NCBI GenBank assembly: GCA_934792465.1
Contig: CAKVOK010000002.1
Coordinates: forward strand, 23,109 to 87,108
Length of the DNA: 64,000 nucleotides
Source of the DNA: an uncultured Clostridia bacterium
GTDB lineage: Bacteria; Bacillota; Clostridia; RUG12999
Direction of reading: 5' to 3'
Shown: piece by piece, positions 24,150 through 51,170 of the stretch
How positions within the stretch are numbered: position 1 is the first letter of the stretch
How the letters are laid out: every line of letters starts with the position of its first letter
Position numbers and translations under genes: made by a program
Notes under the pieces: model-generated
What the model was told of the DNA's origin: nothing
Database searches by the model: none
What the model saw: only the letters and a program-made list of their open reading frames with translations

Positions 24150-26378
24150 ATGAATATCAAGGATTTTGTCACCAATAAAAAATTATTTTTAAAATACTGT
24201 ACGATGATATTTGTTTCGCTTTTTATAACTATTATATTCAGTTCCGCAGTTATAAACAAAACAAGAAGCTTTGCCGAAGAACAGATAAAGAACAACGGCT
24301 ATCAGTCGCTGAAACAGGTTCAGATTGCGCTCGACAGAGAAATTGTAAATATAAGGAAAACAGCAATGTCGGTGACGAGAAACAAGGAGCTTTCCGCATA
24401 TGTGTATAACTCTGACGATATTAACAGCATATACAGACTTTCCGAATTGGTTGACATGACGAATTTCAGGGATTTGGTAGGCGATTTCGTGCTGTTCGGA
24501 TATATTTATATGAAAGACAGTGACCTGATAATCTGCGAAAAGGGAAAATTCACTCCCAAGGAATTTTATGCATACCTCGGCTGTGAGGACGAAACATACC
24601 AGGAATGGTACAGGAAGATTAACGGAAAATATTACAATACGTATACCGAACCGATAAACATTACGCTTGCGGACGCATACGAGAGCAACAAGGTTGTGCC
24701 GTATTTCCAGTCGTTTCCGCTTAGGTCGTTTGAAAAAGGAAATCTTGTTATTTTTCTTGATTACAATAAGATAAATCAGATTTACGGCAGCAGATATTCG
24801 GACGGGAAAAATGCGCTTTTTGTGTTGGACAAGAACAACAAAGTCGTTTTCTCGTTTGGCGATGAATCGAAATTTGATAAAAGCTACAGTGACTTTGATG
24901 AAAAATATACTTCCGTAGGAAGAGATCTCATGGTGTTCAAAAGGGACTCACAGCTCAGCGACGTTACGTATATTTCCGTGGAAGAAAAAAGCTTTATAAG
25001 GGAACAGTTGAAGGGTGTTACGAGGGCGATATATTTGTATATACTGGTCGTTATTCTGATTTGCATTACGATTCCGGTGATAATAGCGCACAAGTTCACA
25101 TCGCCGGTGGTCGGCATATACAGGATGCTCAAAGGCAACAATATAAAAGAGCCGGACAGTATAGCCGAGGTTGTAAATTCCGTCAAGAAATTTATCGAGG
25201 AAAAGGATTCGGCGGAAATATCGTATAAGAAGCAGAAAGCGCAGTTTGCGGAGCAATCTCTGACAAACGCCGTTATAGGATTGCTGGAGGATTTCGTATG
25301 CGACGACGAGGGCAGAGAGTGTCTTGAAAAATATTTCACAAATAAATATATCAGAGTTATCACGGCGGAATTGGCGGATATTCAGACGAATGAGGATTGT
25401 GCGCTTTTGAGATATGCCGTGAAGAATGTCGGCACGGAGGTGCTTGAAAAAAATTCGGCGGTGTATGCGCTTGATTACGGCTGGAACAAGGTTATTTTTA
25501 TAATAAATTACGATAAAGACAATGCCGAAACGATTATGACGGAGTGCGAATATATCTCGGACGTATTTGCGGACGAATTCGGAGTTACTCTGAATATGGG
25601 AATCGGTAAAATGACGGACGATATTCAGAATATGTCAACGTCTTTTGCATCATCGGGAGAAATGCTCGAAGGACTTAATCTCAGCGGTGAACGCATAGGA
25701 ATATACGAGAACCGCCGCCGCAACGAAAGTATATATTATTTCACGGCGGAGCATGAAAACATGATTTTAAAGGCACTTGTAAATTCGGACAGCGAGAGCG
25801 CTTCGGAGGTAATAAACAAGGCGGTCGAGCTGCATAAGACGTCATCGCCGGATATTATAAAATGCTTGCATTTTCATCTTATAGCGACTGTGCTGAAGCT
25901 TGTAAACGATGAAAAGCTCGGACTTTCCGAAACGGAGCTGGAAAACCTCGGAATCGAACGGCTTTTCACTTGCGAAAAGATAACCGATCTGACGAACGAG
26001 ATAAACAGTGTGTTTGCGAAAATATGCTCTGCGGTGAAAGAACAGGGCAACAGCAAAAAAGATGTGTTTAAAACGCTTGTGATGGGATTTGTGGACGAGC
26101 ATTACGGCGACAACGGAATGAGCCTTGATATGGTAGCTTCGGCGTTCAATGTACACCCGACATATATATCGCATTTCTTCAAGGATACGGTGCGGAAGAA
26201 TTTTACAGAGTATGTAACGGAAAAGAGAATCAGCCGTGCGTGCGAGCTTCTCGAAACGGGAGCGACGCTCAACGATATTGCGATTTCGGTGGGATATGCG
26301 AACAGCACGGTACTTGTGAAGAAATTTAAAAAGGTCATGGGAGTTACGCCCGGAGAATACAGAAAATCAATCAAGTGA
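24150..26378 (+). CDS. Transmembrane one-component regulator. Its domains, in order: N-terminal TM, extracytoplasmic sensor domain, second TM, cytoplasmic linker, C-terminal AraC-family HTH. It is YesN-like but has no receiver domain.
   Basis: The first TM helix is IFVSLFITIIFSSAV. The second TM helix, at about residue 290, is AIYLYILVVILICITIPVIIA. The C-terminal AraC HTH_18 signature is VASAFNVHPTYISHFFKD....F..Y....R...A..LL..T...LNDIAISVGYANSTVLVKKFKKVMGVTPGEYR. No HisKA or receiver motif is present. Confidence 0.75.
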   Translation: MNIKDFVTNKKLFLKYCTMIFVSLFITIIFSSAVINKTRSFAEEQIKNNGYQSLKQVQIALDREIVNIRKTAMSVTRNKELSAYVYNSDDINSIYRLSELVDMTNFRDLVGDFVLFGYIYMKDSDLIICEKGKFTPKEFYAYLGCEDETYQEWYRKINGKYYNTYTEPINITLADAYESNKVVPYFQSFPLRSFEKGNLVIFLDYNKINQIYGSRYSDGKNALFVLDKNNKVVFSFGDESKFDKSYSDFDEKYTSVGRDLMVFKRDSQLSDVTYISVEEKSFIREQLKGVTRAIYLYILVVILICITIPVIIAHKFTSPVVGIYRMLKGNNIKEPDSIAEVVNSVKKFIEEKDSAEISYKKQKAQFAEQSLTNAVIGLLEDFVCDDEGRECLEKYFTNKYIRVITAELADIQTNEDCALLRYAVKNVGTEVLEKNSAVYALDYGWNKVIFIINYDKDNAETIMTECEYISDVFADEFGVTLNMGIGKMTDDIQNMSTSFASSGEMLEGLNLSGERIGIYENRRRNESIYYFTAEHENMILKALVNSDSESASEVINKAVELHKTSSPDIIKCLHFHLIATVLKLVNDEKLGLSETELENLGIERLFTCEKITDLTNEINSVFAKICSAVKEQGNSKKDVFKTLVMGFVDEHYGDNGMSLDMVASAFNVHPTYISHFFKDTVRKNFTEYVTEKRISRACELLETGATLNDIAISVGYANSTVLVKKFKKVMGVTPGEYRKSIK

Positions 26379-26420
26379 CTTTATAAAAATGCACAGGACG
26401 CATAAAACAAAAAAGTTTTT

Positions 26421-26464
26421 AAAGAAGTTGCAGTAAAATGAAATCATTTTGCCGCAACTTCTTT
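26421..26464 (+). terminator. Long imperfect hairpin of the AAAATGAAA family (AAAGAAGTTGC..TAAAATGA-AA-TCATTTTG..GCAACTTCTTT), a candidate terminator or attenuator
   Basis: It is read directly. Related hairpins lie at 33934-33968 and 38670-38707. Confidence 0.45.
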
Positions 26465-26476
26465 GCATATAAAACA

Positions 26477-26519
26477 GACTACAAAAATTGACTATGAAAA
26501 AACAGCAATATACGGCGAT
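26477..26519 (+). promoter_or_regulatory. Second copy of the conserved upstream cis-element (GACTAC-N7-GACTAT ... CGGCGAT), 60 bp upstream of the -35 box
   Basis: It is near-identical to 16218-16260 with the same spacing to the promoter. It lies immediately downstream of the AraC-type sensor regulator gene. Confidence 0.5.
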
Positions 26520-26536
26520 AAAGCAAAAGCGGATTA

Positions 26537-26565
26537 TTGATTTTTTGCCGAAAAAAAGGTATAAT
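26537..26565 (+). promoter_or_regulatory. Sigma-A-like promoter TTGATT-17-TATAAT for the 26617 operon
   Basis: The consensus hexamers and the 17-bp spacing are read directly. Confidence 0.55.
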
Positions 26566-26616
26566 GTAGATATGTGCAGCAAGGCACGTATGAAAAAGAT
26601 TTCGGAGGACGATGGA

Positions 26617-29600
26617 ATGAAGAAAATATCAGCAATATTTTTGACAGTATGCATTTTGTGTACGAGCGTATACGCAGCGGAAAACGGCGGTACGGAACAG
26701 ATGTCGGCGGACGGAGGTTACAGTTACAATTTTGTTGACCCCGACTGGATGAGCGACGAGGATTTTTTCGGAGTATATGACAAGGAACAGGGGATTTTTA
26801 CAAATCCGGGCAAATTAAATTACGACGGATTTTCGGGACTTGCCGCTGTCAAAGAGCTTGTTGAAGCGGGAGATTACGAGGGTGCTAAGGAAGAATACAA
26901 GGCATATTACGTAAAAAAGAAAGAAAATCTTAATCTGTTTATAAATTCGACGTCCAAGACGGACGTCATAGTCAGCAGAATGTATGAAAACCAGGTGATG
27001 TACAATCCGCTCTCCGCAACGCTTGTCGATACGGTTAAATTCACAAATGCGGAAACAACAGCCTCAATGGACGTGACAAGCGATGTCAAAAGCATAATGG
27101 GAGCGAGCGACAAAAGGTCGATTTTTCAGCTGGTGGCATTGAAAAAAGACGGCAGCAGCGCAGAGATATATTCGAGAAGCGCAGCGGCGGGCAAACGCCC
27201 CGTAATTGAAGTTACGATAAACGGTATTTTGAACAGAATCGAACCGTACGGCGATACATATATCTGCGGCGGAGAAAACGAAAACATGAACTACGGCAAC
27301 GAAGAAATGCTGAGAGTGGAGGAAAGCGTAACATCAATTCAGCCGGAGGGCGCATGGGAAACCGGCATAAACGATGCCGGAAACGATATAAATACAAACG
27401 GCGTAACCGACAGATTCGACGATGCGGAAACGAAAAGAACATATTTGATGTTTGATTTCAGCTCGCTTAGTTCTGCGGATATAACAAGTGCAGTGCTGAA
27501 GCTGACGGGAAAGAACGCAGGCGGTACGGGCGAAATGGAAATTCTGTGTTTCAGAAATGCCGATACCGCAATTGAGGAAGATACCGTTACATGGTGCAAA
27601 AAAGGAAGCTTCGCAAATGAACATTATGTGTTCAATTCCTATGGATTCAAAGACCCTGACGGAATAGAAACCATATTTTATGCCAAGCCTTACGGAATGA
27701 TAAACAGATATTACGGCGATGTCGGACGTTTCGAAGGGTCGCAGCTGTCGCCTGTCAAGATGTTCAGCGAAACCGGCAACGAGTATTACGGATACGTTGC
27801 CTGCAAGATGTTCGGCGATTATGTTAAGATGAGGGGCGGAAAATACGATGACAGCTATACATCGCTCTGTGCGGCGTGCCGATTGCTGTATATGCCGAAT
27901 CTTATAATGAAGATAATAACAAGCAAGCATATGTCCGCAGAACTTTTCACGGCACTTATGAAAAATCTGTGGCTCAATGCGAACTATATGCAATATACTT
28001 TCAGACCCGGAACAAACTGGGGTTCGTTCCAGATGTCCGGACTCTTCACAACGGGTGCGTATTTCAACGAATTTTCGGATTATTATAACTGGGTTGAAAA
28101 GCCGGACAGTCCGAACGGAGATACGGAAGCGGTATCGCTGAAATATATTCAGAGTGCGGCATACAGAATGTATTTGCTGTCGCAGAATACGATAATAGAC
28201 GAGGATTACAGCTCTACGGAAAAATCCGTGGGATACTGCGCAACGAATATGAATATGTTTTTGAATCCGCTGACCGTTACGGATGTTACGGGGGTTACGT
28301 TCCCGTATAATGACGAAACGATGAAACGTGTCGTAGGCTGCCTTACATATTTCAGGGACTTGCTCGGGCCGGGAGGATATGACATTCAGTGGGGAAACTC
28401 CGGTTCGCATAACGTGAATATGAAATATGTAATAGATAATTTCCTGAAATATTATAATGTTCCGTCGCTGAAATGGTATACGACAAACGGCAAGGAGGGC
28501 ACGGCACCGGAATATACTTCGGTTTTGTATCCGGGTGCGAAAGTTGCGATAATGAAAAGCGGCTGGGACGACAATGCGGCATATCTTCATACGTCTTATG
28601 ATGTGGCAGGCGTTCATGCGCATGATGATGACTTGTCACCGATAATATTCGCAAAAGGAAAATATCTGCTTTCCGACCAAAGCTACAGCGGTTATGCGCT
28701 CGACGCTACGGCGCAGAACTGGCTCATAAGTGCGGAAGCGCATAACGTAATAAAAATAAACGAGAAATTTCCGAACAACACATCGGAGCTGAACGACTGG
28801 GTTACGAACGACGGGTTCGATTTGTTTGCGGCGACAAAAACGAATAATGAGGTCAGCTTCAAAAGAAATATCTTTTTTGTTCGTCCGAATTACTGGATTG
28901 TGACGGATTATCTCGTGCCGAACGATAAGGAAACGGAGAACACATACAGACAGATGTGGCATATGCCGCCGGACGCAAAGCTTGATATAATCGATGAAAC
29001 TTCAAATAAGGCGAAAAGCGCTTATGACTATGTGAATTTGAGTATAATTCCGGTAGGAGGAGATAAGCTCGAAGCGGATATACGAGAAGGCTATTACGGT
29101 ACGGGCAGTACGACGGATATGTCTATGGAAAACTACGTCAATTACATTAAAAATGAAAAAGGTACGGTTACGTACAATACCATACTCCGCCCGGAAATAC
29201 CGGATGAAAAGCTGAACGTAAATACAACGGAAATAGAAATGCCCGATGTAACGGAAAACGGAGCGTCCGCATTCAGCATGGATATAAGCTCAAACGGAAA
29301 AACGAGCGAGGCAACATATTATATTTTAAATGATGAATTGCAAAAGGGCAAGCGAGATGTCGGCAGCTATAATTTCGACGGAAAGGTTTTCTATGCCGAA
29401 AAATCAAGCGGCGGCGAATTTAAGAATATAAACCTTTATAAGGGTAAGGAGCTTAAAGAAAAAGGGAAAACCGTTATAAAGACGGGAGCACCCTCGGAGA
29501 TTAACGATTTGTCGGTAAGCTATGACGGCAGCGTAATGAATATAAGAAGCTCGGAATCGAAAGAAGATATAGGGCTTGATACGATAACGCTGCTTGCGGG

Positions 29601-30393
29601 GGATAAGACGGAAAAGGTGAAATTCAACGATGAGGAAATCAGCTTTTCCAGAACAAAAAATTACATATATTTCGGAGCAAAACCGATTGTTGACGATGAA
29701 GAATACACAAAACCGGATAATAACACCGGAGGCGGTTCGGGAAGCTCGCACGGCGGCAGCTCCGGCGGCAAGACCTCGTCTTCCGGTCCGACCGGCGGCA
29801 GCAGCGGCAGCAGCGGCACTGTAACGCCGATAAAACCGGCAATATCGGAAGCAATGAAAAAAGAGCTTGAAAATCATTGGGCGAAAGACGAAATTATACC
29901 GCTTATAAACAATAAAATCGTCGGCGGAGACGAAAACGGCAGGCTGAATCTTGACGATACGATAACAAGAGCGGAATTTACCGCAATGCTTGTGCGTGCG
30001 TTTAAGCTTGAGGGGCAAAGCGATAAGACGTATAAAGACGTCAGCGGCGGCGATTGGTTCGCACCGTATGTCGGAGCGGCTTCCGCAGAAAATATTATAA
30101 ACGGATATGACGACGGAACGTTCGGACCGGATAAACCCGTTACACGGGAAGAAATGGCGAAAATTACGGTGAGCATATTTAAGAAATATAAGGAAATTCC
30201 GGAAGCGGACACGCAGAAATATGCGGACGACGCCGATATTTCGGACTGGGCAAACAAGTATGTGTATGAAGCCTGCCGGGCGGAAATAATGAACGGCACG
30301 GAAAGCGGCAGCTTCAATCCGAAGAAAGAAGCACTGCGCTGTGAAGCCATGGCGACGGTTTCAAGACTTCTTAACAAGACAAAAGGAGAATAA
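26617..30393 (+). CDS. SLH-anchored polysaccharide lyase of the heparinase II/III-like superfamily. Its domains, in order: N-terminal beta domains (one DNRLRE-like), (alpha/alpha)-toroid region, Hepar_II_III beta-sandwich, Gly/Ser linker, three SLH repeats.
   Basis: It has a signal peptide (FLTVCILCTSVYA). The heparinase II/III signature is GVHAHDDDLSPIIFAKGKYLLSDQSYSGY (H-x-H-x-D-x-L-S), followed by FFVRPNYWIVTDYL...YRQMWHMP. The YLMFDFSSLSSADITSAVLKL segment resembles the DNRLRE/CBM-like pattern. The linker is GGGSGSSHGGSSGGKTSSSGPTGGSSGSSG. The C-terminal SLH repeats carry ITRAEFTAMLVRAF, INGYDDGTFGPDKPVTREEMAKI and MNGTESGSFNPKKEALRCEAMATVSRLL. I place the start at ATG 26617, after a GGAGGA RBS. 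Confidence 0.7.
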   Translation: MKKISAIFLTVCILCTSVYAAENGGTEQMSADGGYSYNFVDPDWMSDEDFFGVYDKEQGIFTNPGKLNYDGFSGLAAVKELVEAGDYEGAKEEYKAYYVKKKENLNLFINSTSKTDVIVSRMYENQVMYNPLSATLVDTVKFTNAETTASMDVTSDVKSIMGASDKRSIFQLVALKKDGSSAEIYSRSAAAGKRPVIEVTINGILNRIEPYGDTYICGGENENMNYGNEEMLRVEESVTSIQPEGAWETGINDAGNDINTNGVTDRFDDAETKRTYLMFDFSSLSSADITSAVLKLTGKNAGGTGEMEILCFRNADTAIEEDTVTWCKKGSFANEHYVFNSYGFKDPDGIETIFYAKPYGMINRYYGDVGRFEGSQLSPVKMFSETGNEYYGYVACKMFGDYVKMRGGKYDDSYTSLCAACRLLYMPNLIMKIITSKHMSAELFTALMKNLWLNANYMQYTFRPGTNWGSFQMSGLFTTGAYFNEFSDYYNWVEKPDSPNGDTEAVSLKYIQSAAYRMYLLSQNTIIDEDYSSTEKSVGYCATNMNMFLNPLTVTDVTGVTFPYNDETMKRVVGCLTYFRDLLGPGGYDIQWGNSGSHNVNMKYVIDNFLKYYNVPSLKWYTTNGKEGTAPEYTSVLYPGAKVAIMKSGWDDNAAYLHTSYDVAGVHAHDDDLSPIIFAKGKYLLSDQSYSGYALDATAQNWLISAEAHNVIKINEKFPNNTSELNDWVTNDGFDLFAATKTNNEVSFKRNIFFVRPNYWIVTDYLVPNDKETENTYRQMWHMPPDAKLDIIDETSNKAKSAYDYVNLSIIPVGGDKLEADIREGYYGTGSTTDMSMENYVNYIKNEKGTVTYNTILRPEIPDEKLNVNTTEIEMPDVTENGASAFSMDISSNGKTSEATYYILNDELQKGKRDVGSYNFDGKVFYAEKSSGGEFKNINLYKGKELKEKGKTVIKTGAPSEINDLSVSYDGSVMNIRSSESKEDIGLDTITLLAGDKTEKVKFNDEEISFSRTKNYIYFGAKPIVDDEEYTKPDNNTGGGSGSSHGGSSGGKTSSSGPTGGSSGSSGTVTPIKPAISEAMKKELENHWAKDEIIPLINNKIVGGDENGRLNLDDTITRAEFTAMLVRAFKLEGQSDKTYKDVSGGDWFAPYVGAASAENIINGYDDGTFGPDKPVTREEMAKITVSIFKKYKEIPEADTQKYADDADISDWANKYVYEACRAEIMNGTESGSFNPKKEALRCEAMATVSRLLNKTKGE

Positions 30394-30394
30394 A

Positions 30395-31321
30395 ATGGTA
30401 GACAGCACAATTAAAGATACCCATGGCTTTATATGGGAAATAAAACAAAACAAATTTTTGTATCTTATGCTATTGCCGGGAATATTGTTTTACATTATAT
30501 TTCATTATGTACCGATGTACGGCGCAATAATCGCATTCAAGGATTATTCGCCGATACTCGGAATAATGCACAGTGAATGGGTAGGTTTCAAGCATTTTGA
30601 AAGCTTTTTCAAGAGCGCATATTTTGTCAGGGTGCTGAAAAATACCCTTGGGCTGAGCATTTACGGACTTCTGGCAGGGTTTCCCGTGCCGATAATACTT
30701 GCGCTGCTGCTGAACGAGATAGGCTGTTCGTGGTTCAAAAAAACGGTGCAGACCGTAACGTATATACCGCATTTTATTTCGATTGTCGTATTTTCGGGTA
30801 TGATAGTCAATTTTACAATGCAAAACGGACTTATAAATGTGCTGCTTTCATATTTCGGATTTGAAAGAACAAATTTGCTCTTAAAACCCGAACTGTTCAA
30901 GTCGATATACGTATGGAGCGATATATGGCAGCAGGCAGGCTGGAACTCCATTATTTATATAGCGGCGCTCAGCTCCATAGACCAGGAGCTCTACGAAGCG
31001 GCGACGCTGGACGGCGCAAACAGATTTCAGCAGACGCTGCACGTTACGCTGCCGGGAATATCGTCCACGATAACGGTGCTTCTGATTTTGCAGATAGGCG
31101 GAATAATGAACATAGGCTTTGAAAAGGTTATCCTCCTTTATAATTCCATGAACATGGAAACTGCGGATATTATTTCGAGTTACGTTTACAGAAAAGGTAT
31201 TATAAACAACAATTTCAGCTTTTCCACCGCCATAGGACTTTTTAATTCGGCAGTGAATCTGATACTTCTGATAACCGCAAACTTCATAAGTAAACGGGTA
31301 AGCGAAAATTCGCTTTGGTAG
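30395..31321 (+). CDS. lplB: Carbohydrate ABC transporter permease, LplB/YtcP type (polysaccharide ABC transporter permease)
   Basis: The LplB-type N-terminal region is LYLMLLPGILFYIIFHYVPMYGAIIAFKDYSP. It has 6 TM helices and an EAATLDGA-type permease loop. ATG 30395 is preceded by an AAAGGAGA RBS. Confidence 0.8.
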   Translation: MVDSTIKDTHGFIWEIKQNKFLYLMLLPGILFYIIFHYVPMYGAIIAFKDYSPILGIMHSEWVGFKHFESFFKSAYFVRVLKNTLGLSIYGLLAGFPVPIILALLLNEIGCSWFKKTVQTVTYIPHFISIVVFSGMIVNFTMQNGLINVLLSYFGFERTNLLLKPELFKSIYVWSDIWQQAGWNSIIYIAALSSIDQELYEAATLDGANRFQQTLHVTLPGISSTITVLLILQIGGIMNIGFEKVILLYNSMNMETADIISSYVYRKGIINNNFSFSTAIGLFNSAVNLILLITANFISKRVSENSLW

Positions 31322-31341
31322 AAAGGAGTTTTATCATAATA

Positions 31342-32223
31342 ATGAGGAAATCAAAAGGGAAAATAATATTCGATATATTTAATTACGTATTGATGATAAT
31401 GCTTGTGATTATAACAATATATCCGTTTTTATACGTAATATTCGCATCGTTTTCAGACCCTGCGGAGCTTATCAAGCTAAACGGAATACTTCTGAGGCCG
31501 GCAGGATTCTCTCTCGAAGGGTATAAAGCCGTGATAAGCAACAAGGAAATATTCACGGGATATATGAACACGATATTTTACGTTGTTGTCGGAACGTCGT
31601 GCAGTGTGTTTTTTACGATACTTACCGCATATCCGCTGTCCAAAAAGAATTTGAAATACGGCAGATATGTTATGCTGATGATAATTTTTACGATGTTCTT
31701 TTCGGGCGGAATGATTCCGAGTTATCTGACGGTGAAAAACCTCGGATTGCTAAATACCCGAGGAGCAATCATTATTCCGGGACTTATTCTTACGTATAAT
31801 CTGATTATAATGAGAACATCGTTTTCGGCAATACCAAGTGCCGTTGAAGAATCGGCAAAGATAGACGGAGCAAATGATTTCACGATATTGTTTCGGATAG
31901 TAGTGCCACTTTCGTGGTCTGTAATAGCCGTTATGGTGCTTTACTACGGTGTTGGGCAGTGGAACGCATGGTTCAACGCAAGTATTTATCTGAAAGACAG
32001 AAAGCTGTTTCCGTTGCAGCTGTTTTTGAGAGAAATACTTATAAATTCGTCAACGGACAAAATGGTGCAGAGCGCAGGCAGCGGTTCGGGAGCGAAAGCG
32101 TCGCTTGAAGAGGTTTTGAAAAATGCGCTCGTGGTAGTATCCACAGTGCCGATAATGATAGTATATCCGTTTTTGCAGAAGCATTTTGTAAAGGGTGTTA
32201 TGATAGGAGCGGTAAAAGGATAA
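31342..32223 (+). CDS. lplC: Carbohydrate ABC transporter permease, LplC type
   Basis: The MalG-like permease has an ESAKIDGANDFTILFRIVVP (EAA loop) segment. It ends ...KGVMIGAVKG. I place the start at ATG 31342. Confidence 0.8.
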   Translation: MRKSKGKIIFDIFNYVLMIMLVIITIYPFLYVIFASFSDPAELIKLNGILLRPAGFSLEGYKAVISNKEIFTGYMNTIFYVVVGTSCSVFFTILTAYPLSKKNLKYGRYVMLMIIFTMFFSGGMIPSYLTVKNLGLLNTRGAIIIPGLILTYNLIIMRTSFSAIPSAVEESAKIDGANDFTILFRIVVPLSWSVIAVMVLYYGVGQWNAWFNASIYLKDRKLFPLQLFLREILINSSTDKMVQSAGSGSGAKASLEEVLKNALVVVSTVPIMIVYPFLQKHFVKGVMIGAVKG

Positions 32224-32251
32224 AAATATATTAAAAAAAGGAGAGGTTAAA

Positions 32252-33817: not shown

Positions 33818-33829
33818 AACTTGGGACTT

Positions 33830-33912
33830 TACAAAAATGTGCAGACCGCAGGAAGTAAGACTTTGCCTTGCTTTTGCTCAGTTTGTCCATTCTGCACTAT
33901 TTTTCTAAAATC
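33830..33912. repeat. Inverted, internally deleted copy of the MITE-like repeat
   Basis: It is the reverse complement of TTAGAAAAATAGTGCAGAATGGACAAACTGAGCAAAAGCAAGGC ... TGCGGTCTGCACATTTTTGT and matches both ends of 15908-16176. Confidence 0.6.
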
Positions 33913-33933
33913 CCACCCACCAAAAAAATACAG

Positions 33934-33968: not shown

Positions 33969-33990
33969 TTTATAAAAGAAAGGTAAAATC

Positions 33991-42597: not shown

Positions 42598-42610
42598 AGG
42601 GGGAAACGTC

Positions 42611-45394
42611 ATGAAAAAAATTATAGCGTTTGTCTTGACGGCGATATTTGCAATGTCGTGCATATCTGCGTCGGCAGATGAAATAAAAAACAGTGAAAAA
42701 TTCAAAAGATATTGCACAATTCTGAAATCGGCAGGCATAGAAACGGGATTTTCGAACGAAAACAATGTAATATCAAGAGAAAAACTGGCGGAACTTGCAC
42801 TAAAACTTACCAAAACAGAGAGCGAAAAATGCACATCGGCAAAATACATTGATGTTCCTCTGAAACATTATGCGGCGGATTTGGTGTATACGGTTACGCA
42901 GAACGGATATATGGCAGGCTTTGACGATAATACATTCAGATTGAATCAACCTGCCTCGGCATATGAATTTGCGAGAGTGCTGCTGTATATGCTCGATTAC
43001 GGTACAATGGCAAAAAAATTGGCATGGACGGAAGCGGATTTTAACAAACGGATTGCCGGAACAAATCTGCTTAACGGAACAAATTCATCGGTGCTTACCG
43101 AGGGCAATGCTGCCGTTATGCTTTATAATATGCTGAAAGAGCCTGTGCTTATCGTTGAAAGCATAACGAATAAGGGAGCGGAATACAAAACCTCCGCAGA
43201 CAAAACATATATAACGGAAAAATGCAGCCTGCTCAAATGCAGCGGAGAAATTCGTGCCGACGGAGAGGCAGCGGCGGTGGGCATCGAGCCGACAGGCAAG
43301 GGAAAAGTGAATATCGGCGGAGAAATATATTATTATGACGGCGATTTAAAAAACAATATCGGATATACGGCGGAGTTTTATGCAACCGATATAAAGTCGG
43401 AGGATATTCAGACGATAATATATCTTGAAATAAAAGAACCGTCGGCAGAGATTACGATTGACGCCGAGGATATACAAAGCTTTTCCAAAGGAACTTTGAA
43501 ATATGAGTACGGCGGCAGAACAAAGACGGAGTATATAAACAGAAACAAAGCGAGTATATTTGTGAACGGCGCAAATGCCGAAAACGTTACGGATACCTTG
43601 TTTACACCGCAGTCCGGTAATTTAAGGCTTGCGGATTTTGACGGTGACGGAACGTTCGATTCGGTTTTTGTAACGTCTGTTGTGTATATCAAGGTTGCAC
43701 AGGTAAATACAACGGATTATACGATTGTCGATTCCGATATGAAATACGAGATTGTAAGCGATGAGGACGCATTAGATTCGGACGGAGGAATAGAAGGCAT
43801 TGCAAACGGAAGCATTATAGCACTTGCGCCGAGCGATTTTGAGTACAAATACATAAACGGACAAAAAATTCCTATGCCGAAGGCGAAAGCAAAACATCTC
43901 AAAGCACAAAAAATCGAAACAGCCGAATCCGGAACGGTAAAATCATACAACGAAGATATGATGACAATATCCGACGGAGAAAACGAAGTAAGTTTTGAAT
44001 ATTCAAAATGGTTCAAGCTTCTGGTTAATGCCGGAGTGTATAAGCTGCCGGATACGGACAGTAATATTACGGTTTATGCGGATAACGGAAAAATTGTTTA
44101 TGCGGACGTTAATTCAATATACGGCGGAGCAAACAAAAAATATACATACGGCTATCTTGTAAAAATGTCGATGAACAACGGCACGCTCGAAAATCCGCAG
44201 TTTAAAATTTATACGGAAGAGGGCATTATGGAAAAGCTCGAAGCTTCCGATAATTTAAAAATAGACGGAGCGAGAGCTTCGACGGCGGACAAAATTAAGA
44301 ATACAAAGCTTTGCCGAAACGGCGAAACGGTAAAACAGCTTGTATGCTTTGATTTAACGGAGGACGGAAAGTTGAAAACGCTTTATACCGCACGCGATTT
44401 TGCTTCAAAGCAAATAACGGACGAAGGCGGAAACACCGTTGACAATCCGGATTACGACCCGAACTACCGCGGATATAACGAAAATTGCTTTTCGTATGAC
44501 TACGGCTGTGCGGAATCGGAAAAAATCACATACAGACACGGATTCAGACATCTTTATACGTTGGACGAACAGGCAACAAAGGTGTTTGTTGTACCGTCGG
44601 ACAGCGAGGACGAAAAATATTTCCAATTAAGGACACCGAGCTATTTTATAAATACCTCGCAATACAGCGTGAAGCTTTATGACGTGCAGAAAAACTTTGT
44701 TCCGTCGGCTGTTGTATGTATGGTAAAGGCGAGTGCCGGCACGGTGGAAATACCGCTGGAGCTGTATCCCGGAAATCCGTGTGCCATAGTTATGAAAACA
44801 TCGCAGGCAATAGACGATGAGGGAGAGATAAGACCGCAGATAACGGTCATGGAAAACGGTTATCCGTTTAAGGTGGGCGCACCGTCCGGAGTTAGACGTG
44901 AATTGTTTGCGTCCGATGATGAAATGACATCGTATAACGGAACACGATACAGCGGAGGAATATATCCGTCCGTTAAATTCAAGGATTTGGTTCCGGGCGA
45001 CGTTATAATGTTCAAAACGAACGATAGGGGCGAAATCAGCGGATACAGAGTTCTCACGAGATACAATGATTTGTACGACGAAAACGGAAATTTTATATGC
45101 CGTGAAATAAATACCAATGACCCTACGGCATCAATGTATATAACCTGCGGAAAGGTTGTCGATATTTTTGACGATTACAGCTTTACGTTCAATATCGACC
45201 CGAACGAAAACGTATCGGGACTGCGGTATTGCTATCAGGGGATAAATTCGACCAACTTTGCTGTGAACCTATACGACCCGACAAAATCGTCGAAAGTCAT
45301 AAGCTGCACCTCTAAGGAAATACGGATAGGGGATTATATCGTTACGAGAAGCGAGAGCGGTAAGGCACTTGAAGTATTTATTTTCAGAAAATAA
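42611..45394 (+). CDS. SLH-domain protein (N-terminal SLH repeats plus a large beta-rich region), paralog of the 18080-20722 protein
   Basis: It has a signal peptide and an SLH-like segment ...GYMAGFDDNTFRLNQPASAYEFARVLLYML. Its overall architecture and several blocks align with 18080-20722. Confidence 0.6.
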   Translation: MKKIIAFVLTAIFAMSCISASADEIKNSEKFKRYCTILKSAGIETGFSNENNVISREKLAELALKLTKTESEKCTSAKYIDVPLKHYAADLVYTVTQNGYMAGFDDNTFRLNQPASAYEFARVLLYMLDYGTMAKKLAWTEADFNKRIAGTNLLNGTNSSVLTEGNAAVMLYNMLKEPVLIVESITNKGAEYKTSADKTYITEKCSLLKCSGEIRADGEAAAVGIEPTGKGKVNIGGEIYYYDGDLKNNIGYTAEFYATDIKSEDIQTIIYLEIKEPSAEITIDAEDIQSFSKGTLKYEYGGRTKTEYINRNKASIFVNGANAENVTDTLFTPQSGNLRLADFDGDGTFDSVFVTSVVYIKVAQVNTTDYTIVDSDMKYEIVSDEDALDSDGGIEGIANGSIIALAPSDFEYKYINGQKIPMPKAKAKHLKAQKIETAESGTVKSYNEDMMTISDGENEVSFEYSKWFKLLVNAGVYKLPDTDSNITVYADNGKIVYADVNSIYGGANKKYTYGYLVKMSMNNGTLENPQFKIYTEEGIMEKLEASDNLKIDGARASTADKIKNTKLCRNGETVKQLVCFDLTEDGKLKTLYTARDFASKQITDEGGNTVDNPDYDPNYRGYNENCFSYDYGCAESEKITYRHGFRHLYTLDEQATKVFVVPSDSEDEKYFQLRTPSYFINTSQYSVKLYDVQKNFVPSAVVCMVKASAGTVEIPLELYPGNPCAIVMKTSQAIDDEGEIRPQITVMENGYPFKVGAPSGVRRELFASDDEMTSYNGTRYSGGIYPSVKFKDLVPGDVIMFKTNDRGEISGYRVLTRYNDLYDENGNFICREINTNDPTASMYITCGKVVDIFDDYSFTFNIDPNENVSGLRYCYQGINSTNFAVNLYDPTKSSKVISCTSKEIRIGDYIVTRSESGKALEVFIFRK

Positions 45395-45416: not shown

Positions 45417-46370
45417 GTGAAACGCACAGAATATATAAGTAGGTGCAAAAAAGGAGCTGCCGCAGTCTTGAAGGACGAGATGAAAAATTACTGGCAGCTG
45501 TATGTGTTACTTATTTTGCCCATAGCTTATTTTATAATTTTTAAATATTTACCCATGTACGGTGCGCAGATTGCATTCAGGGACTATAGTCCCGTGAAAG
45601 GCATAACCGGCAGCCCTTGGGTAGGACTTAAACATTTCAAAGCCTTCTTTTTGAGTCCGCAATGCAAAATGCTTATTGTAAATACCGTAGCGCTGAGCTT
45701 GTATTCGATAATTGCGGGATTTATTTTCCCGATTATACTTGCGATATGCTTTAATTACATAGGAAATGCAGGGTTGAAAAAGCTTGTGCAGACGGCAACA
45801 TTTATACCTAATTTTATTTCTACGGTTGTAATGGTCGGAATTTTGTTTCAGCTGTTCAATCCGAGAATAGGTGTAATAACAAATCTTATTGAAGCAATAG
45901 CGCATACAAAAATTGACATACTCGGCAATCCGAAAATGTTCAGGCATCTTTATGTCTGGTCGGGAGTGTGGCAGACGGCAGGCTGGAACTCCGTTATATA
46001 CATTGCCGCACTCACGGGTGTCGATGACCAGCTTCATGAGGCCGCAATCGTAGACGGCGCAAGCAAAATCAAGAGAATAATACATATTGATATACCGGCG
46101 ATTATGCCTACGGCGATTATAATGTTCATACTTAATCTCGGCGGAGTAATGACCGTTGGGTTCGAGAAAACGCTGCTCATGCAAAATTCGCTGAATATAG
46201 GATATTCGGAGGTTATAGACACATATGTCTACAAGATAGGTATAGCGGCGCAGGGAGCAAGCTTTTCCTATCCCTCGGCGATAGGTATTGTTCAGGCGAT
46301 AATAAACTTTATACTTGTATTTACGGTAAACAAAATTTCGGCAAGGGTTTCGGAAACCTCGTTGTGGTAA
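45417..46370 (+). CDS. lplB: Carbohydrate ABC transporter permease, LplB/YtcP type (second copy)
   Basis: The LILPIAYFIIFKYLPMYGAQIAFRDYSP N-terminus is paralogous to 30395-31321. It has a GTG start after an AGGGAGG RBS, or alternatively ATG 45479. Confidence 0.75.
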   Translation: MKRTEYISRCKKGAAAVLKDEMKNYWQLYVLLILPIAYFIIFKYLPMYGAQIAFRDYSPVKGITGSPWVGLKHFKAFFLSPQCKMLIVNTVALSLYSIIAGFIFPIILAICFNYIGNAGLKKLVQTATFIPNFISTVVMVGILFQLFNPRIGVITNLIEAIAHTKIDILGNPKMFRHLYVWSGVWQTAGWNSVIYIAALTGVDDQLHEAAIVDGASKIKRIIHIDIPAIMPTAIIMFILNLGGVMTVGFEKTLLMQNSLNIGYSEVIDTYVYKIGIAAQGASFSYPSAIGIVQAIINFILVFTVNKISARVSETSLW

Positions 46371-46383
46371 GGGCGGTGAAAGA

Positions 46384-47292
46384 ATGGCAAAAAAGGAAAA
46401 ATCAATATCTGAACGCAATATGTTCAAAGGTGATGTTACGTTCGACATAATAAATCATATAATAGTATTTATCGTTCTTATTATAGTTGCGTATCCGATA
46501 ATTTATGTTGTAAGCGCATCCTTCAGCTCGCCGACGGCGATTATGGCGGGGAAGATAAGGCTTTTGCCGGTTGAGCCGGGGCTTGAGGGATATAAAGTTT
46601 TGCTGAAATATTCAAAGGTGCTTACGGGATTTTACAATTCCGTGATATATACGGTGTTCGGTACGCTGATAAGCATGTTTCTGACGGTATGCGGGGCGTA
46701 TCCGCTGTCACGTCCGGATTTTAAGGTGAGAGGGAAAATACTGCTGATGTTCGCATTTACAATGTGGTTTACGGGCGGCATAATCCCGACGTATATGATA
46801 GTGCAGAAAATAGGCATACTCGATACACGTCTGGCGATTCTGCTCCCCACGGCGATAAGCTTTTACAATCTCACGATTGTAAGGACGTATTTTGTGAACA
46901 GCATACCAAAGGAGCTGAATGAAGCGGCGAGAATAGACGGCTGCGATGATTTCAGATATCTGATAAAAATTGCACTGCCGCTTTCCGTACCTGTGCTGGC
47001 AGTCGTCGGAATGTATTATGCGGTGGGACAATGGAACTCATATTTCAACGCATTTTTATATTTGCAGTCGCAGAAGCTTTTTCCGCTGCAGATAGTATTA
47101 AGGGATATACTTATACTTAATTCGGCAAACGACGCAATCGGCGATTTACAAATTGCAAGCCAAAGAGAATATATGTCGGAGCTTTTGAAATATTCTCTTA
47201 TCGTTGTTTCGTCATTGCCGGTAATAATGATTTATCTTGTAGTCCAGAAGCATTTGATAAAAGGAATTATGATAGGAGCAATAAAAGGCTAA
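46384..47292 (+). CDS. lplC: Carbohydrate ABC transporter permease, LplC type (second copy)
   Basis: It is a paralog of 31342-32223, with the same EAA loop (EAARIDGCDDFRYLIKIALP) and C-terminus KGIMIGAIKG. Confidence 0.8.
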   Translation: MAKKEKSISERNMFKGDVTFDIINHIIVFIVLIIVAYPIIYVVSASFSSPTAIMAGKIRLLPVEPGLEGYKVLLKYSKVLTGFYNSVIYTVFGTLISMFLTVCGAYPLSRPDFKVRGKILLMFAFTMWFTGGIIPTYMIVQKIGILDTRLAILLPTAISFYNLTIVRTYFVNSIPKELNEAARIDGCDDFRYLIKIALPLSVPVLAVVGMYYAVGQWNSYFNAFLYLQSQKLFPLQIVLRDILILNSANDAIGDLQIASQREYMSELLKYSLIVVSSLPVIMIYLVVQKHLIKGIMIGAIKG

Positions 47293-47307
47293 AAGGAGGC
47301 AGGCAAT

Positions 47308-48936
47308 ATGAAAAAATCAATGAAAATCGTTGCGGCGGTATTGACGGCAACACTTATATTCACAGGCTGTTCAAACGGCAAAAAGAAAAAAGAGAACGTA
47401 AACGTAAAGCTTACGGAAACGGGAAGCTATCCCATAGTCGAAGAGCCGGTTACATTATCCGTGCTGACGCCGGCATCGACATATGTAGAAGATTATTCGA
47501 CAAATGAATTTACAAAATATTATGAGAAAAAAACAAATGTAAAAATAGATTGGCAGATAATATCCGGCGAGCTTGCGCAGAAGCTTAATGTTATAATCGC
47601 AAGCGGAAATTATCCCGATGTATTTTTAAACTGTACAATAAAGAAGCCGGCACAGGCACAGTACGGACGCGATGGAATTATACTCCCGCTTAACGATTTG
47701 ATAGAAAAGCATACGGTTAATATTAAAAAGGTACTCGGCGAGAATGAATATATCAAAAAGCAGTATACCGCACCGGACGGCAATATATACGGTCTCGGAG
47801 CTTTCTCCTCCGCATATCATGCGCGTACATCTACGAAGATGTGGGTGTATGAGCCGTGGCTCAAACAATCAGGTATAGATATGCCGGAAACAACTGAGGA
47901 TTTCAAAAACTTTCTTATTAAAGTGCGTGACGGAGATTTCAACGGCAATGGCAAAAAGGACGAAATACCGATTCTCGGACTCGGCACGAGAGATACGATA
48001 AAATTCATTATGAATGCGTTTACGTATATGGACGATTATGAAGATTTTGAGTTCTTTGTTGAAAACGGCAAGGTTGTGTATTCTCCGACAACAGACGGCT
48101 TCAAAGAGGGGCTTAAATATGTCAGAGATTTGTATAAAGAGGGACTTATAGCGAAAGACAGCTTTGTTATAGACCGCCAGCAGAGAACGGCGATAGTGGA
48201 AAACCGGGAATATCCGCTTGTTGCGTGCTGCCCGGCACTTTGGTACGGTCAGTTTACGGTAAACAACGGAGGCACCGGCAGATTTGCGGAATTTACGGCT
48301 GTGCCGCCGCTGACGGGTCCGTCCGGCAGAAAAGCCGCCGCTTTGCGTCAGCCGCTTATAGACGGTCAGAAATTCAGTATTTCAGCATCATGCGAATATC
48401 CCGAGGTTGCTATCCGCTGGATTGACAGATTCTTCTGCGAAGAGGGATTTCTCGATGCGGAAAAAGGTCAGGAGGGCGTAGGCTGGAGAAAGGCTAAGGA
48501 CGGCGAAAAGAATATTTTCGGTCAGCCGGCGAAATATGCCGACCTTACGGGAGAATTCGGTGAAACTCAGAATAAGCATTGGGTGCAGCTTGTTCCGGAA
48601 TACAGAAGTGAAGAAGGCGAATTTTTCTTTGCATCGGACGATACGAGCGGAAAGAGCCTTGAAGCAAGACTTTATAAGGAATCACAGAAATATGAGCCTT
48701 ATGTGGAGGATAAGACGTTGCCGGATATGTTCTACGGCGAGGACGTTATAAACGAATATTCCACCCTGAAAACGAATATTTATAACGAAACATATAAGAT
48801 GGTTGCGGATATGATACTCGGCGATAAGGAAATAGATTCGCAGTGGGATAATTATATAAGCACGCTTGAAAAACAGGGATTGAAAAGATATACGGAAATT
48901 CAGCAGAAAACATATGATAATTATATAAAGAATTAA
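47308..48936 (+). CDS. lplA: Extracellular solute-binding lipoprotein, LplA/YtcQ family (second copy)
   Basis: It has a lipobox (IFTGCSNG) and a ~540-aa size. It immediately follows the lplB/lplC pair. Confidence 0.8.
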   Translation: MKKSMKIVAAVLTATLIFTGCSNGKKKKENVNVKLTETGSYPIVEEPVTLSVLTPASTYVEDYSTNEFTKYYEKKTNVKIDWQIISGELAQKLNVIIASGNYPDVFLNCTIKKPAQAQYGRDGIILPLNDLIEKHTVNIKKVLGENEYIKKQYTAPDGNIYGLGAFSSAYHARTSTKMWVYEPWLKQSGIDMPETTEDFKNFLIKVRDGDFNGNGKKDEIPILGLGTRDTIKFIMNAFTYMDDYEDFEFFVENGKVVYSPTTDGFKEGLKYVRDLYKEGLIAKDSFVIDRQQRTAIVENREYPLVACCPALWYGQFTVNNGGTGRFAEFTAVPPLTGPSGRKAAALRQPLIDGQKFSISASCEYPEVAIRWIDRFFCEEGFLDAEKGQEGVGWRKAKDGEKNIFGQPAKYADLTGEFGETQNKHWVQLVPEYRSEEGEFFFASDDTSGKSLEARLYKESQKYEPYVEDKTLPDMFYGEDVINEYSTLKTNIYNETYKMVADMILGDKEIDSQWDNYISTLEKQGLKRYTEIQQKTYDNYIKN

Positions 48937-48956
48937 TATCAAAAGGAGAGAATGTC

Positions 48957-51170
48957 TTGAATAAACGAAAGGTATTTTTTGCTACATTTTTACTTTCATA
49001 TATTGTGCTTGCGATTGTGATAGCCGTGATTTATACGGGAGTATACGGCAGCTATGCGAAAACCTTAAAAACAAAAAGCGAACAATACAATGTATTGCAG
49101 TTAAAGAAGAACGTTTCGTTTATAGACAAGACACTGCAAAAGATAAATCTAAGCATGGAAGCGGTAAAAAGCTCGGACGCATTTGCGGAAATATGCAATG
49201 CCGACAGCGATGTTGACATTATAAATCTGATTAATATTCAAAACAGCCTGAAAAGCACAGAGGCGGACGAATATCTGTTTAAGGTGCAATATATAAGCCT
49301 GGCGGATAAAAATTTCATTGCGGCGCGCAGCAATTCCACGCTCGGCAAGGAAGAATATTTTTCGAAAATTGTACGTTTTAAAAATTTATCCGATGAAAAG
49401 ATAATGAAAACCGTCAGTTCGGGGAAGAAAAGCCGATATGTATTCCCTGCGGAAACGGTAACGCTGTCCGGCATAAAAACAAAAGCAATATCGGTTGTAA
49501 CGGTTTTCGAAAAAGACGGAAGAAAAATAGGATATATGAACAGCATAATAGCTGTAAAATCCGTGCGTGATGCCGTTATTGATGGATTTGAAAACGGATT
49601 TGCCGCTGTTTATGACGAAAATAAAAATTTGCTGTATGCGGACAAGGATTGTAAAACGGATTTTTACAAATACGACAAAATGCTTTTGAACGGCAAAAAT
49701 GTTGTTATTGCTTCAAGAAGCGATTATAACCGCTGGACATATGTGGTATCGGAAAATCAAAAATATGTTTTCGGAGCACTCAGCAGAGTAAAGCTGCTTA
49801 TATTTGCCGCAACACTGATTGCCATTATATTTGCGCTTGTTTTCGGCAAGCTTTTCATGCGAAAAAACGTAATGCCGATAGGCGAAATACTCGACCTTGT
49901 GGAGCATGACGGGGAAACCGAAGCGAAAAGCAGCATTTACGATAATATATATTCATATGTATTTTTACTGAAAAACGATTTGGAATTGCTGAAAAAATAT
50001 TTTGAGAAAAATGTGAATTTCTTGCAGGGAGGTATTGTAAGAAAGCTTTTGGACGGTGATTTCAAATCTGAAGAGGAGTTGTTTGAGCAATGCCGATATA
50101 CCGGTCTTGATTTTGAAAATCGGCTGTTTTGGATTACGGTGGTAAAATCCGGACCGGAATGGCTCGGACATGAGATTAAAATAAAAAATCAGGAGCTTGT
50201 GGAGGCATTATGCTACGCTGTTCTGGAAAAAAACGGGAAATATTATAAGGACACGGATTTTTATATCTGTCGTGCGGGAGAAAACATAACGGCGATTTTG
50301 TTCAGCAGAGTTTCGGGAGATATTTCAAAGGCGCAGAGGCACAGAGGCGGAATTGAACGTATTCTGAAAAAACAGCTGGACAATAAAATCGGCAAAGAGT
50401 TTTACCTCGGAACGGGAGAAACCGTGGAAGATGCACTTTTGATAAGCCGCAGCTACGGCGAAGTTTTGTCGGCTATTGAAAGGGAAAGGGCAATAAGTAA
50501 CGAAAAAAGCATGTCTATATCCGCAAATTATTGGTATCCTCTTGAAGTGGAGAACCGTATTGCCAATATGACCGTAAATGGCGAAATTGATGGGATTAAA
50601 AAGGTAATTTCGGAAATTGAAGAGAAAAATTTCAAGGAACAAAATCTGACGGATGCAGATTTGCTTGCATTGTATTATGAAATCAAGGCGACGCTTGTAA
50701 AGCTGCTGAAAATGAATTCGGTAGAGGTGTCGGAGGAGGTTATATCGGCACCGGACGAGAAAAAGCCGGAAGCGGCAGTCAGATACATTTTAAACGTCAT
50801 AGAAGAAATATGTAAGGAAAGCGGTAAAAAGAACAAAAACCGCGACGAAGAAAATTATGAAAGAATCAAACATTTCATATATAAAAATTATTGGAATCCG
50901 GATATGTCGCTGACGCTCATAAGCGATAAATTCGGGTTGAACGAAACGTATATCTCGGCTTTATTCAAAAAATACAACGGAAATTATTTGTCTTATCTCG
51001 AAAGCGTAAGGCTTGAATGTGCCTGCAAAATGATGCTGAGCGAAAAAATTAATATAAACGAGGTTGCGGAAATAGTGGGCTACAACAGCGACCAGTCTTT
51101 CAGACGTGCATTCAAGAGGTATTACGGTATATCGCCGACGAGCTATAAGGAGCTTTATAAGAATAAATGA
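48957..51170 (+). CDS. Transmembrane one-component AraC-family regulator with an extracytoplasmic sensor domain (second copy, paralog of 24150-26378)
   Basis: It has an N-terminal TM helix (FLLSYIVLAIVIAVIY) and a second TM helix at about residue 275 (LLIFAATLIAIIFALVFG). The C-terminal AraC HTH is LISDKFGLNETYISALFKK...VAEIVGYNSDQSFRRAFKRYYGISPTSYK. It has a TTG start after an AAAGGAGAG RBS. Confidence 0.7.
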   Translation: MNKRKVFFATFLLSYIVLAIVIAVIYTGVYGSYAKTLKTKSEQYNVLQLKKNVSFIDKTLQKINLSMEAVKSSDAFAEICNADSDVDIINLINIQNSLKSTEADEYLFKVQYISLADKNFIAARSNSTLGKEEYFSKIVRFKNLSDEKIMKTVSSGKKSRYVFPAETVTLSGIKTKAISVVTVFEKDGRKIGYMNSIIAVKSVRDAVIDGFENGFAAVYDENKNLLYADKDCKTDFYKYDKMLLNGKNVVIASRSDYNRWTYVVSENQKYVFGALSRVKLLIFAATLIAIIFALVFGKLFMRKNVMPIGEILDLVEHDGETEAKSSIYDNIYSYVFLLKNDLELLKKYFEKNVNFLQGGIVRKLLDGDFKSEEELFEQCRYTGLDFENRLFWITVVKSGPEWLGHEIKIKNQELVEALCYAVLEKNGKYYKDTDFYICRAGENITAILFSRVSGDISKAQRHRGGIERILKKQLDNKIGKEFYLGTGETVEDALLISRSYGEVLSAIERERAISNEKSMSISANYWYPLEVENRIANMTVNGEIDGIKKVISEIEEKNFKEQNLTDADLLALYYEIKATLVKLLKMNSVEVSEEVISAPDEKKPEAAVRYILNVIEEICKESGKKNKNRDEENYERIKHFIYKNYWNPDMSLTLISDKFGLNETYISALFKKYNGNYLSYLESVRLECACKMMLSEKININEVAEIVGYNSDQSFRRAFKRYYGISPTSYKELYKNK

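Follow-up and report, generated by a model that had tools for sequence, protein, structure and literature searches.

Two predicted membrane-bound AraC-type regulators in the glycan-utilization modules of an uncultured Clostridia bacterium

The 64,000-nucleotide window analyzed here, from the genome of an uncultured Clostridia bacterium, holds a block of glycan-utilization genes, all on the plus strand and with a GC content of about 43%. The QueA protein of this organism has its best match, at 73% identity, in a Clostridia metagenome-assembled genome. Two genes in this block, which we call regA and regB, encode AraC-type regulators predicted to lie in the membrane, and their starts are identical in independent gene calls on metagenome contigs. 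We refer to the gene sets around them as modules A and B. As originally predicted, each regulator adjoins an importer comprising two BPD_transp_1 permeases and one lipoprotein solute-binding protein (identified by Pfam and a lipobox), and SLH proteins lie near the regulators at 18080, 20731, 26488, 40831, and 51200 (Pfam). The coordinates of all features are collected in Table 1.

Table 1. Regulators, candidate operator copies, and module genes in the window
Feature	Position (nt)	Strand	Residues	Description
Candidate RegA operator block	16218-16283	+		Abuts and overlaps the -35 of the promoter of the surface-protein operon (16375-24027)
regA	24150-26378	+	742 aa	Membrane one-component AraC-type regulator; ATG start; Pfam HTH_18/HTH_AraC, weak dCache_1
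RegA TM1	24198-24254	+	17-35	Kyte-Doolittle peak 2.39
RegA extracytoplasmic dCache-like domain	24255-25028	+	36-293	
RegA TM2	25029-25085	+	294-312	Kyte-Doolittle peak 3.03
RegA HAMP-like helix-loop-helix and long signaling helix	25086-25334	+	313-395	
RegA degenerate GGDEF-like domain	25335-25709	+	396-520	
RegA helical domain before the HTH	25710-26069	+	521-640	
RegA AraC-type double HTH	26070-26375	+	641-742	
Second candidate operator copy	26477-26542	+		Directly downstream of regA, upstream of the lyase/transporter operon
SLH-anchored polysaccharide lyase	26590-30393	+		Heparinase II/III-like, with CBM96; Pfam; start from metagenome-contig gene call
Module A importer	30395-33817	+		Two CUT1-type permeases (30395-31321, 31342-32223); lipoprotein binding protein (32252-33817)
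Module A cytoplasmic/accessory enzymes	34012-38643	+		GH88, GH95, GDSL esterase; Pfam
Module B leading genes	38874-45394	+		686-aa protein, SLH protein (40954-42597), 927-aa protein
Module B importer	45417-48936	+		Two permeases and binding protein; Pfam; regB follows after 20 nt
regB	48957-51170	+	737 aa	Paralogue with matching architecture; TTG start
RegB domains			7-25; 26-277; 278-296; ~371-508; 656-731	TM1; outside; TM2; GGDEF-like; HTH
SLH protein downstream of regB	51200-54616	+		Pfam SLH, two copies

Both proteins have the same domain order: a transmembrane (TM) helix, an extracytoplasmic domain, a second TM helix, a cytoplasmic region, and an AraC-type helix-turn-helix (HTH). Calling TM segments from 19-residue Kyte-Doolittle peaks above 1.6, we found exactly two in each protein, enclosing 258 residues in RegA and 252 in RegB, and the four lysines at the RegA N terminus are consistent with an N-in topology. 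The membrane-spanning N-terminal half expected from the original prediction is thus borne out by a second predicted TM helix in both proteins. The expected domain order also holds, but the cytoplasmic region spans about 330 amino acids (aa) rather than about 250. HTH_18 (RegA residues 663 to 739, E = 8e-19; RegB, E = 8e-16) and HTH_AraC exceed the gathering threshold in both regulators, and an NCBIfam scan returned AraC-domain matches only. The solved folds nearest to the RegA HTH are the C-terminal domains of AraT and YesN, at 30 to 32% identity and a root mean square deviation of about 1 Å.

An AlphaFold2 model of RegA, built with 53 homologues, has a mean predicted local distance difference test score of 83. 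In it, a long N-terminal helix runs from TM1 into the outside domain and is followed by two alpha/beta modules. Foldseek comparison of this domain with the PDB recovered dozens of dCache ligand-binding domains at target TM-scores up to 0.61, including those of Mlp24, Tlp3, PctD, TlpA, PscC, and CqsR and sensor-kinase ectodomains, and a profile of the wider family described below matches the PscC dCache domain in a PDB profile search (E = 2.5e-7). From the predicted structure and these profile comparisons, the outside domain is assigned a dCache fold. Beyond it, the model places a TM2 helix at residues 281 to 327, a low-confidence loop at 328 to 336, a 45-residue helix at 337 to 381, a confident beta-alpha-beta-beta-alpha-beta domain at 400 to 512 that is compatible with a GGDEF-like fold, and helices at 533 to 651 that lead into the AraC HTH pair. 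For the middle domain, Foldseek returned DosP, the PucR-type Rv2242, and the cyclase fold, but only as whole-chain matches of low TM-score, which are suggestive at most. A diguanylate cyclase role for the middle domain is ruled out because the GG[DE]EF motif is absent from RegA and RegB and occurs in only 1 of 62 relatives.

RegA and RegB are far from alone in this architecture. Using RegA residues 1 to 650, with the AraC domain left out, as a phmmer query against 1.84 billion cluster representatives (50% identity), we recovered 715 clusters at E ≤ 1e-3, of which 278 reach E ≤ 1e-10. Almost all matches are 740 to 790 aa long and align over the whole query, and 121 of the 143 full-length matches show two hydrophobic peaks and no more, with medians at positions 13 and 302. 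A Pfam census of 62 members found HTH_18 in every one, GGDEF_2 in 50, and dCache_1 in 47, with HAMP, kinase, and receiver domains in none. We also built a family hidden Markov model (HMM) from 60 relatives, leaving out RegA and RegB, and it matches both proteins end to end (RegA, profile positions 5 to 769, E = 1.4e-165; RegB, positions 7 to 770, E = 3.3e-86). The family middle-region profile likewise matches each (E = 1.6e-53 and 1.2e-25, respectively), and the outside-domain profile matches RegB at E = 2.3e-13. Since the family HMM matches RegB throughout, RegB is a genuine member despite having no Pfam dCache match. Conserved positions include P319, retained in 95% of the family, and Y529, E536, T580, and C626 in the helical domain.

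Members with assigned names occur in many species of Paenibacillus, in Cohnella and Bacillus, and in Clostridia metagenome-assembled genomes. RefSeq and UniRef list them as “AraC family transcriptional regulator” or “helix-turn-helix domain-containing protein,” and one IMG annotation mislabels a member “response regulator YesN.” A literature search for the dCache/GGDEF_2/AraC architecture returned no study beyond the Saccharophagus degradans genome paper, and a profile search against the PDB returned no solved structure for the family's sensor or middle domains. By sequence, RegA and RegB are ordinary members of a large, catalogued, and little-studied Bacillota family. The original prediction had implied that the fused type is rare, which the 715 clusters and the recurring RefSeq-named members contradict; because the family is large and already catalogued, the architecture is ordinary and not new. 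Two variants, P0254 (674 aa) and P0255 (955 aa), keep dCache and GGDEF_2 and lack the AraC HTH, one being truncated and the other carrying a different C-terminal extension of about 300 aa. Such variants raise the prospect that the sensor/relay module may couple to other outputs.

Pfam detected no HisKA, His_kinase, HATPase_c, or Response_reg domain in either regulator, nor did any plus-strand open reading frame (ORF) of at least 200 aa in the window, or the partial ORF at its 3' end, show a kinase or receiver domain. The scan also took in one 124-aa ORF and one minus-strand ORF; outside it lay the other ORFs below 200 aa, the remaining minus-strand ORFs, which overlap plus-strand genes, and partial ORFs within positions 1 to 1000. 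These scans rule out a hidden kinase or receiver among the ORFs covered. The claim that the regulators have neither a histidine kinase nor a receiver domain therefore stands for both proteins, and the scanned ORFs and the 62 family members lack these domains too. With both the His_kinase/HATPase_c core and the receiver missing from the proteins, phosphotransfer cannot take place.

The family profile instead divides over the two proteins of YesM/YesN-type two-component systems. Profile positions 349 to 771 align to residues 114 to 531 of an Agathobacter rectalis regulator with REC, GGDEF_2, and HTH_18 domains (E = 3e-54), and a profile of the middle region alone, without the HTH, matches the same protein at E = 2e-19. 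Positions 15 to 377 are collinear with residues 14 to 375 of the adjacent A. rectalis kinase, which has dCache_1, His_kinase, and HATPase_c domains (E = 2e-13). A Metabacillus kinase/regulator pair splits likewise, over the N-terminal half of the kinase (E = 4e-8) and the C-terminal part of the regulator (E = 2e-40), and a 531-aa metagenomic regulator shows the same alignment behavior as the Agathobacter and Metabacillus regulators. Alignment to the response regulators begins at about residue 114, past the receiver. When a Paenibacillus member was searched against plasmids by tblastn, it also matched “response regulators,” over the C-terminal 400 or so residues only. In the Metabacillus kinase, the domain that Pfam calls HAMP (residues 293 to 341) lines up with the P319-bearing motif that the family conserves behind TM2. 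This segment is predicted to form a helix-loop-helix and may be HAMP-like, but Pfam HAMP itself does not match it.

Because the profile halves split over kinase and regulator, we describe the family as a YesM-type sensor and linker joined to a YesN-type output. The original proposal that sensing and DNA binding are fused in one protein agrees with this division, the N-terminal half aligning with YesM-type kinases and the C-terminal half with their cognate YesN-type regulators. The likeness to YesM/YesN is therefore one of sensor half and output half, each homologous to and collinear with the corresponding half of RegA and RegB; the difference is that RegA and RegB have neither the His_kinase/HATPase_c core nor the receiver. 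We tentatively suggest, as something close to an even question, that the family arose by loss of the kinase core and the receiver from a YesM/YesN pair, with a HAMP-like relay driving the AraC module directly through the degenerate GGDEF-like domain, without phosphotransfer and with the protein retained in the membrane, which would make it an undescribed signaling class.

Candidate target sites for RegA were found on both sides of its gene. The upstream block reads GACTACAAGAATTGACTACG...CAATACGCGGCGAT...ATTATTGCAA and lies upstream of a TATAAT at 16301 to 16306. The two copies align without gaps over about 65 bp as GACTACAAnAATTGACTAyG ... CAATAnnCGGCGAT ... ATTATTG, end in a -35 hexamer, and have identical spacing to the -35 and to the TATAAT -10. 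A 20-nt core occurs twice in the window, both times in the blocks flanking regA, with 0.01 occurrences expected by chance. A further contig encodes a RegA orthologue of 89% identity; there, the copy that follows the gene is nearly unchanged, whereas the adjacent terminator hairpin has diverged. The promoter of regA itself resembles the core promoter, and the block is absent from it. Both the position of the block at the -35 and the GACTA repeat inside it would suit an activator of the AraC type, making it a candidate RegA operator; in Caldicellulosiruptor, too, the sites predicted for AraC-family sugar regulators lie upstream of promoters as tandem repeats (PMC8579813). With the block present only at the promoters flanking regA, the two modules could plausibly be regulated independently. 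The gene for RegB lies within a long operon, for which the best promoter-like site is at 38795 to 38824. Between this site and the terminator of the GDSL-esterase gene is a near-perfect palindrome (38717 to 38777; 24-nt arms and a 13-nt spacer), which may serve as an operator or form an RNA structure.

The reading that we favor, and hold to be reasonably likely, is that RegA and RegB are membrane-bound one-component activators that sense glycan products outside the cell and stay tethered. The dCache domain would detect a product freed from a polysaccharide by the SLH-anchored surface enzymes, in module A possibly an unsaturated uronate-containing oligosaccharide released by the heparinase III-like lyase. 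The signal would pass through TM2 and the HAMP-like helix-loop-helix to the long signaling helix and reposition a dimer of the GGDEF-like and helical domains. RNA polymerase could then be recruited by the two AraC HTH units, bound at tandem sites next to the -35, while the protein remains in the membrane throughout activation. The likely RegA targets are the two promoters flanking regA (16218 to 16306 and 26477 to 26565), and RegB would probably autoregulate the long operon that begins around 38795. If Bacillus subtilis YesS is a guide, a cytoplasmic signal such as HPr~P may feed in through the GGDEF-like domain as well.

Several observations weigh against this reading. Of the dCache and HAMP models by which the original prediction proposed to check both proteins, dCache_1 matches RegA weakly (residues 43 to 255, E = 1.6e-5 to 6.8e-5, under the gathering score) and RegB not at all, so that the dCache assignment draws on the profile and fold evidence; Pfam HAMP matches neither regulator at E-values up to 1, nor any of the 62 relatives at E-values up to 0.01. 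GGDEF_2 has no Pfam match in RegA and a weak one in RegB (E = 0.044). As for the operator, no block comparable to that of RegA was found for RegB, and the intergenic regions that hold the RegA block also share other dispersed repeats, so the block could instead be part of a duplicated promoter cassette. Finally, one divergent relative adjoins a TctABC transporter and not a sugar importer.

Gene neighborhoods across the family count in favor of the glycan-sensing reading and also bear on what the outside domain might read. Two adjacent permeases and a binding protein occur at 7 of the 8 family loci examined, the window being counted twice, and glycan-degrading enzymes are also present at all six loci that lie in a longer gene cluster. 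A Clostridia contig carries a GH43 gene, two permease genes, a DUF3502 binding-protein gene, a pectinesterase gene, and the regulator gene; a Cohnella locus encodes the regulator, a binding protein, two permeases, and a GH2 enzyme. The locus on a P. cellulositrophicus plasmid (GH88, fucosidase, binding protein, two permeases, and regulator) has almost the gene content of module A, and a Bacillus plasmid carries a similar set. With a binding protein encoded within a few genes of the regulator at 7 of 8 loci, and regB starting only 20 nt after its own binding-protein gene, the outside domain might read the ligand-loaded binding protein or the transport state of the importer and so couple induction to uptake. 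D62, P190, S267, and Y274, outside-domain positions conserved across paralogues from different glycan loci, would suit a common protein partner, or else a structural role. However, solved dCache domains typically bind small ligands directly, and few regions of the family are less conserved than the outside domain (mean identity, 21%; RegA versus RegB, 12%), as fits ligand-specific pockets, though the binding proteins have diverged too. We consider binding-protein-dependent sensing unlikely.

Control could alternatively be mainly cytoplasmic, with the TM segments and outside domain serving as an anchor or scaffold and the GGDEF-like domain set by HPr~P, a nucleotide, or an imported sugar. The HPr-binding region of YesS (residues 406 to 510 of 761) does match the position of the GGDEF-like domain (396 to 520 in RegA), and GGDEF_2 domains occur in soluble PucR/CdaR-type regulators, the Foldseek match to Rv2242 being only weak. 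A mere anchor, however, would not need the dCache fold of about 255 aa that is kept across hundreds of clusters, and homology to the YesM-type kinase sensor implies a sensing role, so we rate this alternative as quite improbable. Both binding-protein sensing and cytoplasmic control could coexist with tethered activation by an outside ligand. Regulated proteolysis, in which cleavage at or near TM2 would free a soluble GGDEF-like/AraC fragment to activate away from the membrane, would answer the general problem of how a tethered activator reaches its promoter and could use the low-confidence loop at 328 to 336 after the first linker helix, but we think it very improbable, given that Pfam scans found no protease gene in module A or B, that the linker is homologous to a kinase HAMP/signaling-helix relay, which transmits conformational change and not cleavage, and that ToxR and CadC activate while tethered.

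The remaining genes of the two modules are consistent with glycan breakdown and uptake. The module A lyase matches heparinase III (4mmh) in a PDB search at E = 3e-14, the importer of this module has BPD_transp_1 and DUF3502 matches and a lipobox in its binding protein, and the GDSL esterase region has PDB matches of the acetyl xylan esterase type. The module B binding protein resembles FusA, AlgQ1/2, and Smon0123 in PDB searches. For the 686-aa (38874 to 40934) and 927-aa (42611 to 45394) proteins of module B, neither Pfam, NCBIfam, nor the PDB offers a relative, and both may be undescribed glycan-active enzymes. Neither importer module includes a gene for an ATP-binding cassette ATPase, which is consistent with CUT1 systems that use a shared MsmX/MsmK-type ATPase encoded elsewhere. 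Searches of the window with Rfam and for tRNAs returned no matches. Identity between modules A and B is 44 to 45% for the permeases, 23% for the binding proteins, and, in the C-terminal half only, 24% for the regulators, and DNA-level similarity is limited to three short patches. The original description of 30395 to 33817 and 45417 to 48936 as a modular duplication is thus right about paralogy, but a recent tandem or segmental duplication is ruled out by the missing DNA-level similarity; judged by these identities, the modules are old paralogues.

Other repeats and local duplications lie in the same region. Dispersed intergenic repeats occur at 7757 to 7868, 15862 to 15972, 16138 to 16181, 26373 to 26465, 33823 to 33975, 37488 to 37522, and 38657 to 38711. 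One element is a terminator-like hairpin (AGTTGCrGCAAAATGAAAtCATTTTGCyGCAACT), and the other is an adjoining GGGCTTTAGAAAAATAGTGC... motif present in both orientations. Without an Rfam match, these repeats look like repetitive extragenic palindromic sequences or miniature inverted-repeat transposable elements. The RegA module as a whole (surface-protein operon, regA, lyase, and importer; about 17.9 kb) is flanked by a 57-nt inverted repeat at 15916 to 15972 and 33859 to 33915, whose arms are 93% complementary and include a perfect core of 40 nt. This pair could delimit a cassette that moves or inverts, or it could be no more than the dispersed repeat in two copies. The 124-aa ORF at 37554 to 37928, between the GH95 and GDSL esterase genes, matches only the first 90 of the 155 positions of the GNAT Acetyltransf_4 model and is probably a truncated gene remnant.

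Two pairs of surface-protein genes also share DNA similarity. Positions 14102 to 14618 and 15353 to 15869, which encode the C-terminal SLH-bearing parts of the proteins at 12261 to 14618 and 14640 to 15869, are 77 to 79% identical; to judge from the sequence, this duplication is more recent than the regulator modules. Patches of 76 to 88% DNA identity link 52573 to 53028, in the gene for the SLH protein at 51200 to 54616, with 59742 to 60179, in that for the 1,148-aa protein at 58510 to 61956. This similarity suggests that the two are paralogous surface proteins downstream of regB.

Glycan-degrading Bacillota carry many such regulators, and the ligands and promoter activation of membrane-tethered AraC proteins have hardly been studied; even the probable relative YesS was analyzed without reference to membrane topology. 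The pair in this window adds no new principle, and the useful outputs of our analysis are the YesM/YesN decomposition and the candidate RegA operator. The split into a YesM-type sensor and a YesN-type output makes a concrete model that can be tested, footprinting can start from the conserved promoter block, and family members should not be annotated as “response regulator YesN.” If the family does represent an undescribed signaling class, RegA would be a tractable model for glycan signaling across the Bacillota membrane without a phosphorelay, because its candidate operator is present at two promoters.

Among known systems, B. subtilis YesS (RhgR, UniProt O31522, the activator of the yes operon) is probably a studied member of the family, as its length, operon setting, and regulatory-domain position fit. 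We found no literature on its membrane topology; it probably has two transmembrane segments, as annotated in UniProt. None of the matches in our protein searches bore the name YesS, a genome scan with RegA as the query returned nothing, and no yes-operon protein appeared in PDB searches with homologues of the neighboring genes. YesS is a 761-aa AraC/XylS-type positive autoregulator with two C-terminal HTH motifs. Its gene adjoins yesMN within an operon that also encodes an ABC importer and enzymes that degrade rhamnogalacturonan, and the central residues 406 to 510 of the protein bind HPr and His~P-HPr (PMC2788870). The settings differ in that the yes locus encodes YesM/YesN, whereas the window has no two-component system, and in the glycan, which is rhamnogalacturonan for yes and is represented here by a heparinase III-like lyase, GH88, and GH95 set. 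The AraC regulators of about 750 to 790 aa listed in RefSeq and IMG for Paenibacillus, Cohnella, Bacillus, and Clostridia share the architecture, Pfam content (dCache_1, GGDEF_2, and HTH_18), and neighborhood of RegA and RegB but are only 20 to 38% identical to them.

Beyond the Bacillota, membrane-bound AraC-type one-component regulators beside polysaccharide-degrading genes were described in S. degradans in 2008 and proposed to be extracellular polysaccharide sensors (PMC2386152). Compared by description, they resemble RegA and RegB in their AraC output, TM segments, and location beside polysaccharide-degrading enzyme genes and differ in their Gram-negative host and in that most have 6 to 7 TM segments. 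In the hybrid two-component systems of Bacteroides, too, one polypeptide senses glycans through an extracytoplasmic domain and acts through an AraC output, and these systems control polysaccharide utilization loci (PMC3404733). They keep the kinase and receiver, however, and their sensor is of the beta-propeller/Y_Y_Y type rather than dCache (Pfam). Our family profile matches the AraC domain of a Bacteroides hybrid system (PDB entry 12aw), which is the only part shared.

ToxR and CadC are membrane-tethered activators that work without a phosphorelay, and in this respect RegA and RegB resemble them. Each has a single TM segment, an N-terminal winged-helix domain of the OmpR type, and a C-terminal periplasmic sensor. 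RegA and RegB, in contrast, have two TM segments with the sensor between them and a DNA-binding domain of another fold, the AraC HTH, at the C terminus, which gives them the opposite polarity.

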